The notes beneath the pieces are model-generated. The model did not search any database and had not been told where the DNA came from. It saw only the letters and a program-made list of their open reading frames with translations. Below are positions 16,631 to 47,425 of a stretch of 64,000 nucleotides of DNA, piece by piece (within the stretch, counting starts at the first letter, position 1; the number at the start of each line of letters is the position of its first letter). The DNA is from a phage, in sequence record PZ154896.1; one strand, given 5' to 3'. The translations under genes and the position numbers were made by a program.

Positions 16631-17101
16631 TTAATCATGTTTCCACACCCCATCGGTATTTGACCAAAGTCGCTGATTATCTGATCCTCGCCACAGCTTT
16701 TTAGTCGGAAGATTTTTCTCGTACTTCCCATCAATAATAACATCAACATATTTAAGCATTTCTAGTTGTTTAATATCTTCAAACTTATATCCTGTCCACA
16801 ACCAAATGCTTTTATTGGGATAAAGATTTTTTACTGTTTGAACGATGCAATGAACAACATCTCTGTTGTCAGGATAGAGAGGGTCACCTCCGGTTATAGT
16901 CAATCCTTCTATATAATCATTATTCAAACATTCAATTAATTGTTCTAGTGTCTCTCCAGTGAATGGAATGCCATTTCTAGCATTCCATGTTGATTTATTA
17001 TAACACCCTTCGCATTTATGCAAACAACCTGTAACGAAAAGAACGACCCTGCATCCAGAGCCATTCACAAAATCGCAGGGATAAAATCTATCGTAATTCA
17101 T
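16631..17101 (-). CDS. nrdG: anaerobic ribonucleotide reductase activating protein NrdG
   Basis: 156 aa; radical-SAM-type Cys cluster CLHKCEGC; ATGA-coupled to nrdD. Confidence 0.9.
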   Translation of the reverse strand: MNYDRFYPCDFVNGSGCRVVLFVTGCLHKCEGCYNKSTWNARNGIPFTGETLEQLIECLNNDYIEGLTITGGDPLYPDNRDVVHCIVQTVKNLYPNKSIWLWTGYKFEDIKQLEMLKYVDVIIDGKYEKNLPTKKLWRGSDNQRLWSNTDGVWKHD

Positions 17102-18915
17102 TGGTGTTTAACCCTATGCATGATTTCTTTATTTTTACCGAGATTAAATCCGCGTTCGTTCGGATTTCCCAAATAACCGCATGTTCTTCTTATAGTATTC
17201 ATCTTTTTAGGATCAGTTTCTCCACAAACTGAACAAACAAATCCGTTTTCAGTAGGAGTCATTTCATGAGTACTTCCGCATGTAAAACATTTATCTACTG
17301 GCATATTAACACCAAAATAATCTAAATGTTGCGCAGCATAATCCCATACAGCCTCAAGACCTTTTAGGTTATTTTTCATATCAGGAAGTTCAACATAAGA
17401 AATGTGACCGCCTGTTGCAATGAAATGATATGGGGCTTCGCGAGAAATCTTTTCAAATGGAGTAATATTTTCTTCTACTGAAACGTGGAAACTGTTAGTG
17501 TACCAGCCTTTATCGGTGACATCTTTTACACTTCCATATTTTTCTGTATCAAGTTTACAGAAGCGATAACAAAGGTTTTCAGCAGGAGTAGAATATAAAC
17601 TAAAAGCAAATCCAGTTCTTTCAGACCACTGTTTAAGATGAGCATTCATTTTAGTTAAAATTTCTTGTCCAATATCACGACCGACAAGAATATTCAATTC
17701 GTGAATACCAATGTATCCCAAAGACACTGAACTTCTACCATTTTTAAATAACTCAATTATATCGTCATCAGGTTTAAGACGAACCCCGAATGCACCTTCT
17801 TGGTAAAGAATAGGAGCTACAGTTGCTTTAACACCCTTTAAAGAACTAATTCTACACATCAAAGCTTCAAAACACAGATCCATTCGTTCATTAAATAGCT
17901 CAACAAATTTCTGTTCATTGAATTGTGTTCCAATATAAGAATCTAATGCAATACGAGGAAGATTCAGTGTTACAACACCAAGATTATTACGTCCATCAAG
18001 AATTTCATTACCAGTCGAATCTTTCCATACACTCAAGAAACTACGACAACCCATTGGAGAAACAGGAATAGATGAACCGGTGATAGCTTTATTATTCTTA
18101 ACTGAAATAATATCAGGATACATTCTTTTGCTTGCACACTCTAGAGCAAGCTGCTTAATATCATAGTTCGGATCATCTTTATAAAGATTAACACCTTCTT
18201 CAACAAACATAACAAGTTTAGGAAAAATAGGAGTTATCCCATCGCGTCCAAGGCCTTTAATACGATTTTTCAGAATTGCTTTCTGAATCATTCGTTCAGC
18301 CCAGTCAGTTCCCATACCAAACGTAATTGTTACAAAAGGCGTTTGTCCGTTTGAACTAAAGAGAGTATTTACTTCATATTCATAAGCTTGGAATGCATCG
18401 TATACGTCTTTTTCTGTTTTAGATTGGGCATAATTCAACGCATCAGCGATTTGCCATTTTTCTGCATCTTCAACATGTTTAGCGTATGTGCGTTTAACAT
18501 AAGGAGAAAGAACTTTATCGACATTCGCAAATGTAGTTCCGCCGTACTGGTGTGAAGCAACCTGTGCGGTAATTTGTGCCATAATTGCAGTAGCAACGCC
18601 AATAGATTTAGGCGTTTCAATTTGAGCATTACCTAGCTTAAATCCATTCTCAAGCATCCCCTTTAAATCGACTAAACAGCAATTAGTAAATGGAAGAGCA
18701 GGAGAATAATCAATATCATGCATGTGAATGATTCCGCTTTCATGCGCATTCATAATAAAAGACGGGACCATATTTTTGGCAATGTGCTTAGACACAATAC
18801 CAGCCATAAGGTCCCGTTGAGTTGGAAAAACACGAGAATCTTTATTAGCATTCTCGTTCAAAAGATCTTTATTAGTTTTATGAATTAATCCTTCAATTTC
18901 TTTTTCAATTTTCAT
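17098..18915 (-). CDS. nrdD: anaerobic ribonucleoside-triphosphate reductase NrdD
   Basis: 605 aa, same length as T4 NrdD; C-terminal CFTCGSTH...CSVCG zinc ribbon and glycyl-radical region; uninterrupted. Confidence 0.95.
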   Translation of the reverse strand: MKIEKEIEGLIHKTNKDLLNENANKDSRVFPTQRDLMAGIVSKHIAKNMVPSFIMNAHESGIIHMHDIDYSPALPFTNCCLVDLKGMLENGFKLGNAQIETPKSIGVATAIMAQITAQVASHQYGGTTFANVDKVLSPYVKRTYAKHVEDAEKWQIADALNYAQSKTEKDVYDAFQAYEYEVNTLFSSNGQTPFVTITFGMGTDWAERMIQKAILKNRIKGLGRDGITPIFPKLVMFVEEGVNLYKDDPNYDIKQLALECASKRMYPDIISVKNNKAITGSSIPVSPMGCRSFLSVWKDSTGNEILDGRNNLGVVTLNLPRIALDSYIGTQFNEQKFVELFNERMDLCFEALMCRISSLKGVKATVAPILYQEGAFGVRLKPDDDIIELFKNGRSSVSLGYIGIHELNILVGRDIGQEILTKMNAHLKQWSERTGFAFSLYSTPAENLCYRFCKLDTEKYGSVKDVTDKGWYTNSFHVSVEENITPFEKISREAPYHFIATGGHISYVELPDMKNNLKGLEAVWDYAAQHLDYFGVNMPVDKCFTCGSTHEMTPTENGFVCSVCGETDPKKMNTIRRTCGYLGNPNERGFNLGKNKEIMHRVKHQ

Positions 18916-32573: not shown

Positions 32574-33112
32574 TCTTTTATTTCCAGTAGTTTATTTGAT
32601 TTAAGGTAATTAGCCTTTTCTAGGACTTCAGAAGCATATTTACTTCCAGCACTTGTCTTCCATCCCGCATTATATGAGGATATAGCTTTTCTTATATCCC
32701 CGTTATGTATATTTAACCAATAAGAAAATTCGATATAAGCCCATCTGGCTGAATTAGACCGCTTAGATAGCATTTTCTTAATTTGGGCATCAGTCATATT
32801 ATAACCAAGCTGGTTAATTCTTGCCCTCATTGTTGGTAGATAATTTTGGAACATTCCATACGCATGGTGACCTTTCTTATTTTTAAGATTAATACCGGCA
32901 GATGATTCCTGCCATAGTATTGCGGCCATTATGTATCCAAGTCCTTTCTTATGCATATTTTCATGCGTTTTAAATTTTCCATCCTTAGAAAACTGTTCCC
33001 CAAACTGATAAGCATAATTCAAGTTATCGAGTTGGACATTACTAAAAGTATGCTCGGAGCTATGTGCTGATAACGAAAGAGCAAATAGACCAGCGAGTAG
33101 TGCTTTTCTCAT
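32570..33112 (-). CDS. secreted lytic transglycosylase-like (SLT domain) protein
   Basis: 180 aa; signal peptide; LWQESS catalytic Glu motif, AYGMFQ, YNAG. Confidence 0.65.
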   Translation of the reverse strand: MRKALLAGLFALSLSAHSSEHTFSNVQLDNLNYAYQFGEQFSKDGKFKTHENMHKKGLGYIMAAILWQESSAGINLKNKKGHHAYGMFQNYLPTMRARINQLGYNMTDAQIKKMLSKRSNSARWAYIEFSYWLNIHNGDIRKAISSYNAGWKTSAGSKYASEVLEKANYLKSNKLLEIKE

Positions 33113-33120
33113 GTTTACCT

Positions 33121-33579
33121 CTAGATTTTAATCACTGCTTTAGAAGCTTTTCCTGGTAGTCGTTTACTGTTAATAATAGCCATTCTGCATTGAAGAGTCT
33201 TCATTTTGAATGCTGGATTTTCGCGACAAACTGTAAGTCCTAACCAAAGATTTCCATCAGTTATTTCTAAACGGCCTGGGCGATATTCGACACCTTCGAC
33301 AAAATCTTCATCAACATCCGGACGTGCCGGCATTGATAAAAATTCTGCAACTTCTTTAACATGATTTTTTACTTTACGAAATAATTCAAAAACGTAGTTC
33401 TCATCTATTTCTCTCTGGATGGCACGATCTAAGAGATGTTGAGAATACTTGATATGAAAGCCTGGTAGCCCAAGAGACTTTGCAGCATCTTTTACACCGG
33501 CATTTATTTTGCGGAACTCCGTTTCAAAGATTCGACGGAGTTTATTACGGCGGATAAAAACGTCAGAATTGATAGTCAT
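33121..33579 (-). CDS. regB: site-specific RNA endonuclease RegB
   Basis: 152 aa; about 80% identical to T4 RegB from memory (MTIN..VFIRRNKLRR, EITDGNLWLG, CRMAIINS.RLPGKASKAVIK). Confidence 0.9.
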   Translation of the reverse strand: MTINSDVFIRRNKLRRIFETEFRKINAGVKDAAKSLGLPGFHIKYSQHLLDRAIQREIDENYVFELFRKVKNHVKEVAEFLSMPARPDVDEDFVEGVEYRPGRLEITDGNLWLGLTVCRENPAFKMKTLQCRMAIINSKRLPGKASKAVIKI

Positions 33580-33596
33580 TTTTGATTTCTCCTCTA

Positions 33597-33638
33597 GTTG
33601 ACAGGTCTATAGTAACACATCTAGAGGAGAAGTAAACA
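33597..33638 (-). promoter_or_regulatory. early promoter cassette (GTTTAC-17-TACTAT) flanked by 9-bp inverted repeat
   Basis: CTCCTCTAG ... CTAGAGGAG inverted repeat; upstream of regB. Confidence 0.5.
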
Positions 33639-33641
33639 ACT

Positions 33642-33857
33642 TTATTGATAAAATGGAGTTAAAGCCCAAGATTCTTTAGATACCATATCGGCGAAATGCC
33701 TCATCTCTTCGATTTGGCGACGACGTTGGTCAGCATAGTCTTCTTCGCCTTCTTCCTTACAATCTTCAAGGTCTTCTTCAAGATACTTTAAGTATTCACT
33801 ACAAATTTTGTTGACCTTTTCTTGAAAGTCCAATAACCCAGTAATAGTAGAAGCCAT
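33642..33857 (-). CDS. hypothetical acidic protein
   Basis: 71-aa ORF. Confidence 0.5.
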   Translation of the reverse strand: MASTITGLLDFQEKVNKICSEYLKYLEEDLEDCKEEGEEDYADQRRRQIEEMRHFADMVSKESWALTPFYQ

Positions 33858-34291
33858 TAGTATTTTTCCTCAGGTCGAAATACTGCACGACATGCCCACA
33901 TGCTGGCTTCTTTTAGATGTTGCTTAGCATACTTAAGAGCCTGCACTGCATCCATATCTTCTTTGGTTTGTTGCTCTGATTCATTTTCTTTCAAGATATA
34001 TGCTTCTTCAATCAGAGCATCAAACATCAATCCAAGACGGACTTCTGCATCTTTAATAGCGTTCACTTTACTGATTTTATCATCGGTATGCGGCTTGTAG
34101 CCTTTGATGTCTTCAATCGACATAAGGAATTTCCTCATCGGTGGCAAGGTCATATTCGACCAATTGGATAGGCTCATTAATATCATATCCGCGTACAGTG
34201 ATATCGGTTGACGGATATTTTCCAGTAATATCACCCGTTCTAAATGCTTCAATGAATGATTGCTCGCCTGAGCAACCAAACCAGGCGGCAA
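33857..34291 (-). CDS. hypothetical protein
   Basis: 144-aa ORF. Confidence 0.5.
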   Translation of the reverse strand: MPPGLVAQASNHSLKHLERVILLENIRQPISLYADMILMSLSNWSNMTLPPMRKFLMSIEDIKGYKPHTDDKISKVNAIKDAEVRLGLMFDALIEEAYILKENESEQQTKEDMDAVQALKYAKQHLKEASMWACRAVFRPEEKY

Positions 34292-34337
34292 AACATTTTA
34301 AAACATCTTCAGACCCTTCTATAATCAATTTAGCCAT
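34113..34337 (-). CDS. hypothetical protein (overlapping frame)
   Basis: 74-aa ORF overlapping the previous ORF by about 180 nt; one of the two may be mis-called. Confidence 0.3.
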   Translation of the reverse strand: MAKLIIEGSEDVLKCFAAWFGCSGEQSFIEAFRTGDITGKYPSTDITVRGYDINEPIQLVEYDLATDEEIPYVD

Positions 34338-34699
34338 TATAGACTCTCAGTAAAGGTACGAGCTATAACGTCGCGCTGTTGTTCTGGAGTCAGAGAGTTA
34401 AAGCGAACTGCATAACCAGATACACGGATGGTCAGCTGCGGATATTTTTCAGGATGCTTAACTGCATCTTCCAGAGTTTCACGACGCAGAACGTTAACGT
34501 TCAGGTGTTGACCACCTTCAATTTTAACTTTAGGTTGATGTTCAATTTCAATTTCACGGGCATTCAAACCGTAGAAAATTTCCGGGTCTACAATAGCGTC
34601 TTCTTTAAAAGTCTTAGAGACGATAATCCGGGCTTGAGTACCATCTTCAAAATAAATAGTGCCTTTATGTGCACCTTCAAGAATTTGATATGCTTTCAT
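34337..34699 (-). CDS. autonomous glycyl-radical cofactor (GrcA/YfiD-like)
   Basis: 120 aa; C-terminal [25 protein letters not shown] is the pyruvate-formate-lyase glycyl-radical signature. Confidence 0.75.
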
Positions 34700-34705
34700 A
34701 TAACC

Positions 34706-35062
34706 TCAATTAGAAAATAAATTTATCCAAGTTTTTTCTTTAATCAAAAATGGGTCGGAATTAAACGCCATTAAACTTTGGGTGATTAATCCCTTAAATG
34801 GCCCATCAATAAATTCCATTTTGAAATGCGGAATACTAGTCATCAACCGTGCATTAGGAGCAGTACAAAGAACCTGTTGACCTGCGAACGGACCTTTAGT
34901 CAAACGATATCGTTTAGGTTTAAAATGGTAAATCTCGTAATTTTCTACAAGAGCCCTTTTATTGCATACTGGGCTGTTATAACAATACTCAAAAACTTCA
35001 ATAGTGGTCATCATTGCATTCCAATCACAAAAAATTGAGGACGAGCAATACCGCCGATGCAA
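34706..35062 (-). CDS. hypothetical protein
   Basis: 118-aa ORF. Confidence 0.5.
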   Translation of the reverse strand: MHRRYCSSSIFCDWNAMMTTIEVFEYCYNSPVCNKRALVENYEIYHFKPKRYRLTKGPFAGQQVLCTAPNARLMTSIPHFKMEFIDGPFKGLITQSLMAFNSDPFLIKEKTWINLFSN

Positions 35063-35550
35063 TATTTGCTTTTGCAGCAGTGCTGTACTGATTTAATATG
35101 GACATTGTAAATCTTATCCATATCAGGAGCTTTAATAGGCTCGTCAATTATATACAGAATACGAGAAAGCGTTAATCCACGGAATTTAGAACCTTCATTA
35201 CCAATAAAACTACGGACAGAATCAGTAAATAAACGGAATCGAATATCATCGCTAGAATAACGAGAAAATTCTTTTTTAATGTTGCCAGCAGAAATTTTAG
35301 CATAAGCTGAAGTATTAGAAAGAACAATAACTGTTCCACCATCGAGCAGCCAATTAGCGGCAAAATTAGTTACTGCAGTTGATTTACCAGATTGTCTGCC
35401 ACCATCTAAACGAAGTGTACAGTACTGCTTGAGTACGTCTTCAAATGGTGGGGCATAACCGTTCTTACAAATTTCTTCTACTCTAGCATCAGAATGGTGT
35501 GTAAAAGCATTCATCAGGGATAGATAAGGTCCAGTTAAAAATGTTCTCAT
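35011..35550 (-). CDS. hypothetical protein with P-loop-like motif
   Basis: 179 aa; GGRQSGKST Walker-A-like. Confidence 0.5.
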   Translation of the reverse strand: MRTFLTGPYLSLMNAFTHHSDARVEEICKNGYAPPFEDVLKQYCTLRLDGGRQSGKSTAVTNFAANWLLDGGTVIVLSNTSAYAKISAGNIKKEFSRYSSDDIRFRLFTDSVRSFIGNEGSKFRGLTLSRILYIIDEPIKAPDMDKIYNVHIKSVQHCCKSKYCIGGIARPQFFVIGMQ

Positions 35551-35723
35551 TTAGTTTCTCTTAAGGTTGGGGCCATTCCGTGGCACATGTTAGGTCCTTC
35601 GACTCGCTATGTAAACCCATTACCGCACTTGGGCTCGACCTTATTACAGGTTGGAAAAGGTACATCACTTAGAAGACTCGAGGTTCATAAGGAGAGGTTG
35701 CGTTTCCCTTTATTAGGCAAGAA

Positions 35724-36053
35724 TTATACTCTAGGCTTTTGAGCTTGTTTGGTATTGGATTCCCATGCGGCTTTGGTAATTTTGTTAGCGGCATAACCAA
35801 AGGCATTAGATAGAACACCTTTAGAGTTGAATACATCCAATCCAATAAGTACACCTGCTGTGTTAAATTTAGGAGCAAAGTACGCATTAGTTTTAGAAAG
35901 AGCTTTTTTCAATTCAGGGTCTTGAACCAAGCCATCAAAAACGCCTTTACCATTTACTTTATATGTTACTTTGGGATTTTTAGCTTCTTCGATAGCAGCT
36001 TTCTGTTCCGCAGATAGTGTAACTTCAGTAATAAATTCTTGATAGGTTTTCAT
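35724..36053 (-). CDS. internal (capsid-targeted) protein
   Basis: Start set at MKTYQEFITE (ATG 36051-36053), the capsid-targeting sequence shared by T4 internal proteins. Confidence 0.7.
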   Translation of the reverse strand: MKTYQEFITEVTLSAEQKAAIEEAKNPKVTYKVNGKGVFDGLVQDPELKKALSKTNAYFAPKFNTAGVLIGLDVFNSKGVLSNAFGYAANKITKAAWESNTKQAQKPRV

Positions 36054-36166
36054 TTTGTTCTCTCTAGGTTTAGACCATTCCATGGCCCATGAATTGTCCA
36101 TTTTCCGTATTTACCACTCCAAGTAATTATGAATATACTATCACAATTCTAGGAGAAAGTAAACTG

Positions 36167-36469
36167 TTATTTACCTTTAATTACTTTAGCTGCTTCGATA
36201 GCCGCTTGCTGAAGGTCGTCCATAGACATACCGAATTTAGAAGCAAAGTTATCAATTTTCTTTTCGACCGCATTCAAAGGCTTGGCCTGTTTACCTTCAT
36301 TAGCGCCTGGAAGAGCGAGAATACGCTCTTTGTCAATATAAAGGCTTACAAGTTTCTTACGGTCTTTATCGGACAAATCATGAAATGAATGGGCCTTTTT
36401 ATTTATAGCGGCTTCTAATTTACCTGCGCTCACTCGCGCTTCAGTAATAAATTCTTGATATGTTTTCAT
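36167..36469 (-). CDS. ipII: internal protein II-like
   Basis: 100 aa, N-terminal MKTYQEFITEA capsid-targeting sequence; size matches T4 IPII. Confidence 0.75.
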   Translation of the reverse strand: MKTYQEFITEARVSAGKLEAAINKKAHSFHDLSDKDRKKLVSLYIDKERILALPGANEGKQAKPLNAVEKKIDNFASKFGMSMDDLQQAAIEAAKVIKGK

Positions 36470-36510
36470 ATGTTTCCTTTAAATGTAAATAGGCCTAAAT
36501 ATAGGCCTTA

Positions 36511-37089
36511 TTAATTACCACGGGCTGCATTAGCAACGGCATAAGCGTACTGAACATTAGCGTCTTTAAACGTACCTTTAGAGGTATCTATTTCTGCCTT
36601 AAAGCCGCCTTTAGCCATAACATCGGCAAATTCTTTACGGAAAGCCATTGCATCAAGACCTTTCCATGATGATTTGTGCTTGGCGAATTCAAGACCAGCG
36701 TAGTTGACAGCCTTAGCTAATTTATTATCAATAACCCATTTACCGGCTTTAGGCACAAACTTCGGTCCTTTTTGTTTAGAGAACAGTTTTAAATTCCAGC
36801 GACGAAGATCACTGTCGGCTTTAACAAAAGCTGCATCTAAGTTACTAGCAACAACATCTTCAATATGAGCAAATTTAAGTCCGTCAACTTCAATATTTAG
36901 ATCGTTACGCCAGCGAAGTCCTTCCCAAGCGAAGGCTTTAAAATCAGAAGCTTTTGTGGCTAGATATCGTTCAAGTGGAGCAGTTTTAGGGTCAAAGCCG
37001 TTTCCGCCACGATAAGTCCACTCGTCCTTATTAATGCCTTGAGCTTTTCCTGCAAAGGCCTCGGCGATAAATTCTTTATATGTTTTCAT
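36511..37089 (-). CDS. ipIII: internal protein III-like
   Basis: 192 aa, N-terminal MKTYKEFIAEA; size matches T4 IPIII. Confidence 0.75.
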   Translation of the reverse strand: MKTYKEFIAEAFAGKAQGINKDEWTYRGGNGFDPKTAPLERYLATKASDFKAFAWEGLRWRNDLNIEVDGLKFAHIEDVVASNLDAAFVKADSDLRRWNLKLFSKQKGPKFVPKAGKWVIDNKLAKAVNYAGLEFAKHKSSWKGLDAMAFRKEFADVMAKGGFKAEIDTSKGTFKDANVQYAYAVANAARGN

Positions 37090-47270: not shown

Positions 47271-47347
<77 letters not shown>

Positions 47348-47350
47348 GAT

Positions 47351-47425
47351 TGGTGACCCTGGCTGGTTTCGATCCAGCTACCTATCAGTTATGAGCTGAC
47401 AGCTCTCCCATTGAGCTACAGGGCC
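47351..47425 (-). tRNA. tRNA-Met (anticodon CAU; could be Ile2 if lysidine-modified), CCA encoded
   Basis: Manual fold: acceptor GGCCCUG/CAGGGUC, D-stem GCUC/GAGC, anticodon loop CUCAUAA, T-arm GCUGG-AUCGAAA-CCAGC; 3 nt from tRNA-Arg. Confidence 0.8.

Follow-up and report, generated by a model that had tools for sequence, protein, structure and literature searches.

A phage GrcA-type glycyl-radical protein orthologous to T4 Vs.6, with a radical domain identical to that of E. coli GrcA

Two small proteins of approx. 14 kDa, YfiD (GrcA) from E. coli and Y06I from bacteriophage T4, are described as 'spare part' proteins in the work of Knappe and co-workers (PMC8683613). Both take up a glycyl radical from the activating enzyme of PFL (pyruvate formate-lyase), bind PFL that has been cleaved by oxygen and restore its activity (Wagner et al. 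2001 BBRC 285:456, as related in PMC8683613), and they are, according to PMC8683613, the only spare-part proteins to have been validated. A 2026 review repeats this biochemistry and reports that YfiD has a disordered N-terminal region, which nevertheless promotes radical installation by the activating enzyme, PFL-AE (PMC13450708), and the radical passes between molecules, from G102 of GrcA to C419 of PflB (PMC12338860). A role in phage nucleotide metabolism was suggested from the common Pfam Gly_radical domain (Nolan et al. 2006, PMC1524935) and the ORF was not found to be essential in T4 genetics (PMC1524935); the searchable literature yielded no report of how vs.6 mutants behave in vivo. Both the gene and its spare-part interpretation are already known, given that the biochemistry of the T4 orthologue dates from 2001 and that grcA is named in RefSeq phage annotations.

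The gene and its neighbourhood

We analysed a 64,000-nt stretch of DNA from phage PZ154896.1, referred to as the window, for which a GrcA-like gene had been predicted at 34337–34699. The phage is T4-like, a Mosigvirus-like relative and not a Tequatrovirus, and the 3.5 kb around the gene are 98.6% identical at the nucleotide level with Shigella phage phi25-307 (Straboviridae, Tevenvirinae, Mosigvirus). The counterpart in phi25-307 has 99% amino acid identity and is annotated as 'grcA, autonomous glycyl radical cofactor GrcA'. The predicted gene proved to be a real ORF, and the features on which the analysis of the locus depends are as follows.

34337–34699, minus strand: grcA coding sequence (orthologue of T4 vs.6/Y06I), with an ATG start, 120 amino acids and a TAA stop, from the ORF listing
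34415–34417, minus strand: GGT codon of Gly95, the predicted radical glycine, lying within RVSGYAV, read from the sequence
34704–34707, minus strand: Shine–Dalgarno sequence GAGG, 4 nt before the grcA ATG, read from the sequence
33121–33579, minus strand: regB endoribonuclease (PHROG 1323, 8.8e-75); the counterpart in phi25-307 bears the label endoribonuclease and that in T4 the name regB

Translation of 34337–34699 on the minus strand gives a 120-residue product that opens with MKAYQ and carries the 21-residue glycyl-radical motif at residues 92–112. At the 5′ junction (34700–34708), the TGA stop (34706–34708) of the upstream vs.7-like ORF overlaps the GAGG Shine–Dalgarno sequence of grcA and, at a TAATG junction (34334–34340), the TAA stop of grcA overlaps the start codon of the next ORF. 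Three small ORFs, which are vs.5-, vs.4- and vs.3-like, lie between grcA and regB, all on the minus strand, and the gene order of the window is that of T4, i.e. vs.8–vs.7–vs.6–vs.5–vs.4–vs.3–regB. The original prediction had placed the gene downstream of regB, which holds in plus-strand coordinates only; as the whole set is encoded on the minus strand, grcA is transcriptionally upstream of regB. With its overlapping junctions, grcA sits in a tightly packed minus-strand cluster that is probably co-translated. The tight junctions also imply translational coupling across the vs.7–vs.6–vs.5 stretch.

A promoter and terminator scan of positions 33000–36600 gave no usable signal, with 9 promoter-like sites where 10.7 would arise by chance, and we therefore infer the transcription unit containing grcA solely from the packing of the genes. 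Regular-expression searches gave zero sites for T4 middle (MotA-box) promoters around grcA, and a single early-like promoter site at 33636, upstream of regB. An antisense ORF at 34379–34720 (plus strand, 113 amino acids, TTG start) was rejected as a shadow ORF, being without support against the well-backed minus-strand gene. In an Rfam scan of the whole window nothing was found at the grcA locus, the only hits being two tRNAs at 47.3 kb, which are adjacent genes at 47274–47347 and 47354–47425 on the minus strand (71 and 59 bits respectively).

Upstream of vs.8 (35551–36500) the gene order departs from that of T4. In T4, denV comes directly after vs.8, whereas in both the window and phi25-307 it lies approx. 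2 kb further on, with an extra ORF of 125 amino acids (35724–36101) and internal-protein genes between vs.8 and denV. In addition, GlmU-like and KpsF (arabinose-5-phosphate isomerase) genes are annotated beside the DNA polymerase gene in the near-identical phage phi25-307, in a region that corresponds to approx. 1–2450 of the window; sugar-nucleotide genes of this kind would be out of the ordinary in T4 itself, and they may have to do with hypermodification of DNA in Mosigvirus.

Assignment to the GrcA family

The protein gave matches far beyond chance to the glycyl-radical families. Residues 60–101 matched the Pfam Gly_radical domain (PF01228) at 67.3 bits, the gathering score being 22.2 (E=2e-18). 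In a search of the PDB the best match was E. coli GrcA (6OWR, E=2e-42), and the C-terminal 64 residues of pyruvate formate-lyase came next, at E=3e-26 (1H16, 2PFL and others). The C-terminal motif had been predicted to be the glycyl-radical signature shared by PFL and GrcA, and the alignments bear this out: RVSGYAV, within residues 92–112, aligns with both proteins, R92-V93-S94-G95-Y96 fits the RVxG[FWY] fingerprint, and the conserved glycine is present, Gly95 falling in the same column as G102 of GrcA and G734 of PflB. Residues 61–120 are identical with residues 68–127 of E. coli GrcA at all 60 positions, which make up the structured domain of 6OWR. The protein contains no cysteine residue and no PFL barrel, and its matches to PFL models cover just the last 65 or so positions of those models. 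AlphaFold2 run from the single sequence gave a model with a mean pLDDT of 41, which was too poor to use.

Among NCBIfam models, the GrcA equivalog TIGR04365 ranked at the top (E=5.8e-47, 159.1 bits, profile positions 23–126), ahead of two short models, GrcA3 and GrcA2, and of the formate C-acetyltransferase C-terminus. The protein has all the hallmarks of GrcA that can be read from the sequence, with the one exception of this model's threshold score. The TIGR04365 cutoff of 170 bits was missed by 11 bits, a shortfall that we attribute to the divergence of the phage N-terminal half from bacterial GrcA and not to a loss of function. When the model was calibrated with known members, T4 Vs.6 scored 151.1 bits and E. 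coli GrcA scored 233.9 bits; as the biochemically validated T4 protein also falls below 170 bits, the cutoff mirrors the bacterial N-terminus and fails to separate functional phage members. We equate Vs.6 with Y06I on the basis that RefSeq names the vs.6 product GrcA and that Y06I is the UniProt name of an uncharacterized protein of the T4 regB–denV region. On these profile scores and alignments and on the shared gene order, the gene is a phage grcA encoding a stand-alone glycyl-radical domain and is the orthologue of T4 vs.6, and its product belongs to the phage Vs.6/Y06I branch and not to the bacterial-type equivalog.

The protein also matched PHROG 1209 from end to end (9.1e-63, residues 1–120 on profile positions 1–121). 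This family, phrog_1209, is labelled 'unknown function' in PHROGs v4, although its T4 member Y06I was characterized in 2001, and many GenBank phage records give its members as 'hypothetical protein' or mislabel them as 'pyruvate formate-lyase' or '2-ketobutyrate formate-lyase'. The PHROGs label is thus an annotation gap, and the family is missed in many phage annotations.

Mosaic structure of the gene

When the gene was compared codon by codon with E. coli grcA, it fell into two halves of very different character.

34520–34699, minus strand: codons 1–60, phage-type N-terminal half, GC 35%, 50% nucleotide identity to E. coli grcA
34337–34519, minus strand: codons 61–120 and the stop codon, host-like radical-domain tract, GC 46%, 95.6% nucleotide identity to E. 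coli grcA

The breakpoint between them, at codon 60/61 (34519/34520), is sharp and is found in T4 vs.6 too. In codons 1–60, 10 of the 19 codons that specify the same amino acid in both genes are identical with those of E. coli grcA, as against 52 of 60 in codons 61–120. Over the 183 nt of the 3′ tract, the differences from E. coli grcA are eight synonymous and zero non-synonymous, mostly GC to AT. The 3′ half of the T4 gene matches E. coli grcA at 98.4% of its nucleotides; 57 of the 59 codons that specify the same amino acid are identical there, and the two halves of the T4 gene differ in this respect with p=2e-6 by Fisher's test. With 8 nt of difference from E. coli grcA in the 3′ tract, against 3 nt in T4, the window gene has drifted further. 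As a yardstick we used the matching 183 nt of other bacteria, which are 84% (Salmonella) and 93% (Citrobacter amalonaticus) identical with E. coli grcA; the phage tract, being nearer to E. coli than either, therefore lies within Escherichia-level divergence. The likeness to E. coli grcA ends at the stop codon, and identity is 25% over the next 60 nt.

Homologues of the protein were found by tblastn in 1,589 of 50,697 phage records, many of which name the product GrcA or, less strictly, 'pyruvate formate-lyase', and a tract with at least 95% identity to the E. coli segment is present in 639 phage records. In RB49-like and T5-like coliphages the 3′ half is 75% and 71% identical with E. coli grcA respectively. 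In a Klebsiella Jiaodavirus the 3′ half has 55% GC, and its best match among the 80 loci listed, from which K. pneumoniae grcA is absent, is a Pseudocitrobacter grcA at 89.6%. GrcA-like genes of three other phages are as follows.

Locus L086, 1492–1908: GrcA-like gene of an RB49-like Krischvirus, with an N-terminal insertion of approx. 18 residues
Locus L087, 1501–1869: GrcA-like gene of a T5-like Tequintavirus, adjoining tRNA genes
Locus L088, 1495–1857: GrcA-like gene of a 357-kb jumbo Erwinia phage (Eneladusvirus)

The phage-type N-terminal half is common to the Straboviridae and the jumbo Erwinia phage and, more loosely, to T5-like phages. Bacteria have a different N-terminus, whose own conservation extends from E. 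coli to the Pasteurellaceae. This distribution suggests that a phage-adapted version of GrcA has spread among unrelated phage families. All three of the phages listed above have the phage-type N-terminus (MKAYQ.L / KAIQIL..GEH.GTI).

The comparison of the two halves suggests that the radical domain was recently replaced, or gene-converted, from a host source, and the simplest reading of the sequences is that of an old phage grcA whose radical half was replaced by Escherichia DNA via homologous recombination. A more far-reaching version would make the gene a chimera, in which an old, phage-specific N-terminal half is joined to a radical domain recently overwritten with host grcA DNA, the breakpoints being codon 60/61 and the last two or three codons. 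T-even phages would re-copy this segment from the host time and again by homologous recombination, such that the spare part would always fit the PFL and PflA of the current host while the N-terminus would confer phage-specific behaviour. We regard this version as a tentative possibility that is rather doubtful as it stands; T4 and the window share the breakpoints and their synonymous codon differences are similarly spread over both halves (10 in the 5′ half and 8 in the 3′ half), which makes a single ancestral event as plausible as repeated conversion. We found no description of the host-like 3′ tract of phage grcA in the searchable literature, and absence there is no proof of novelty. This mosaic, host-derived radical domain is the sole aspect of the gene that goes beyond standard annotation.

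The same host-like tract could be read as the mark of a functionless passenger, i.e. host grcA DNA that was recently captured and has no role in infection. The 95.6–98.4% nucleotide identity of the 3′ half to E. coli grcA and its host-like GC would fit such a passenger, as would the T4 genetics mentioned above, in which the ORF was not found to be essential (PMC1524935). However, hundreds of phages from several genera and families, isolated independently, have kept the ORF intact. Its 5′ half is of the phage type, it comes with a Shine–Dalgarno site and coupled neighbours, and the T4 protein is biochemically active (PMC8683613). In addition, the substitutions are predominantly synonymous, with 18 synonymous and 8 non-synonymous codon differences between the window and T4 genes, which indicates selection for the protein. 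We therefore consider it highly improbable that the gene is a passenger.

Predicted role in infection and comparison with known systems

The original prediction had also drawn attention to nrdD and nrdG, and both genes are indeed present in the window, approx. 15 kb from grcA.

17098–18915, minus strand: nrdD, anaerobic ribonucleoside-triphosphate reductase, the phage's own glycyl-radical enzyme (908 bits for NF006732 and 567 bits for TIGR02487, each exceeding the cutoff)
16631–17101, minus strand: nrdG, NrdD-activating radical-SAM enzyme (TIGR02491, 197.7 bits against a cutoff of 126)

Against the PflA model TIGR02493, NrdG scored just 47 bits, with a cutoff of 232, and on this score the phage NrdG is no PFL activase. 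No PflA-type activase was found among the window proteins tested, NrdG being the only activase examined.

The phage protein might instead be a spare radical domain for the phage NrdD, activated by the phage NrdG, in which case it would serve nucleotide metabolism and leave host PFL aside; nrdD and nrdG share the window with grcA, and T4 NrdD is also cleaved by oxygen at its radical glycine. The nucleotide-metabolism role suggested by Nolan et al. 2006 (PMC1524935) points the same way. In contrast, the protein has no detectable similarity to the window NrdD, the best BLASTP alignment having E=9.9 and lying outside the NrdD C-terminus, whereas its radical domain is 100% identical with that of E. 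coli GrcA and approx. 84% identical with the C-terminus of PflB. Moreover, T4 Y06I works with PFL-AE and PFL (PMC8683613), and a service to NrdD is in our view very unlikely.

We consider it highly probable that the gene encodes a GrcA-type spare radical domain that repairs oxygen-cleaved host PFL. This part of the original prediction matches the published biochemistry of T4 Y06I (PMC8683613) and was thus already established. In such a scheme, vs.6 would be expressed from the dense minus-strand cluster vs.8–vs.7–vs.6–vs.5–vs.4–vs.3–regB, and the host radical-SAM activase PflA, but not, we expect, the phage NrdG, would take a hydrogen from Gly95 to leave a glycyl radical. Where host PflB had been cleaved by oxygen at Gly734, the activated phage protein would dock where the C-terminal radical domain had been lost and hand its radical to Cys419 of PflB, so that conversion of pyruvate into acetyl-CoA and formate could resume. 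The steps of activation by PflA and rescue of PflB are those described in the literature for the T4 orthologue in vitro, and for the window protein we obtained its identity, the conserved glycine, and the orthology and synteny with T4 vs.6.

From this we infer, beyond the biochemistry, both what the phage would gain physiologically and the link between formate and NrdD. Under the host gene shut-off typical of T4-type phages, a phage-encoded supply of the spare part may keep PFL working during infection in micro-aerobic or oxygen-fluctuating conditions, and sustained PFL activity would provide ATP, acetyl-CoA and formate, the last of which serves as reductant for the class III ribonucleotide reductase that is also phage-encoded. 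In E. coli, the class III enzyme takes its hydrogen from formate (Mulliez et al. 1995, as cited in PMC13450708), which would explain why a phage carries grcA alongside nrdD and nrdG.

A caveat to the repair scheme is that the N-terminal region, which is relevant to radical installation in E. coli GrcA (PMC13450708), is the very part that differs in the phage protein. This bears on a further reading, in which the protein is a modulator or decoy that titrates host PflA or occupies PflB, redirecting or damping fermentation without repairing PFL, with the phage N-terminal half altering its behaviour. The N-terminal 60 residues are only approx. 30% identical with bacterial GrcA yet are conserved among unrelated phage families, and the influence of the E. 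coli N-terminal region on installation by PFL-AE (PMC13450708) would leave room for altered behaviour of this kind. However, Y06I, like YfiD, restores PFL activity (PMC8683613), and the whole of the PFL-contacting radical domain is identical with that of the host, as would be expected of a functional replacement part; a decoy role is therefore unlikely, and we favour repair. The gene illustrates well how a lytic phage can bring along a repair part for an enzyme of the host's central metabolism, although it matters little as a discovery.

The phage protein can be compared with four known systems. E. coli GrcA/YfiD (P68066; 6OWR) is also a stand-alone radical domain, in which RVSGYAV with its radical glycine is identical, and the N-terminal landmarks IQI, ARxIVxK, F.ED, RE and P.V are common to the two proteins. 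The phage protein is seven residues shorter, lacks an 11-residue N-terminal segment of bacterial GrcA and has only approx. 30% identity with E. coli GrcA in its N-terminal half; in addition, being encoded by a lytic phage, it would lie outside host regulation, unlike E. coli GrcA. The C-terminal domain of PflB (1H16, 2PFL) aligns over residues 696–759 with E=3e-26 and approx. 84% identity, including an identical core of 22 residues around G734. Unlike PflB, the phage protein has neither the catalytic barrel nor Cys418/Cys419 and so is no enzyme on its own, and at variable positions it is nearer to GrcA than to PflB.

The GrcA-like proteins of Krischvirus, Tequintavirus and Eneladusvirus are likewise small and have the same conserved core, but they are 52–67% identical and their genomic contexts differ; their 3′ halves have only 70–75% nucleotide identity to E. 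coli grcA and are without a recent Escherichia-derived tract. T4 Vs.6 (Y06I; NP_049730, RefSeq 'autonomous glycyl radical cofactor GrcA') has, like the window protein, 120 residues, and occupies the equivalent place in the vs.8–vs.7–vs.6–vs.5–vs.4–vs.3–regB–vs.1–vs cluster. The two proteins have 93% amino acid identity and differ by eight substitutions, seven of them in the N-terminal half and the other at position 73 (arginine in the window protein and histidine in T4), and their C-terminal 47 residues are identical.
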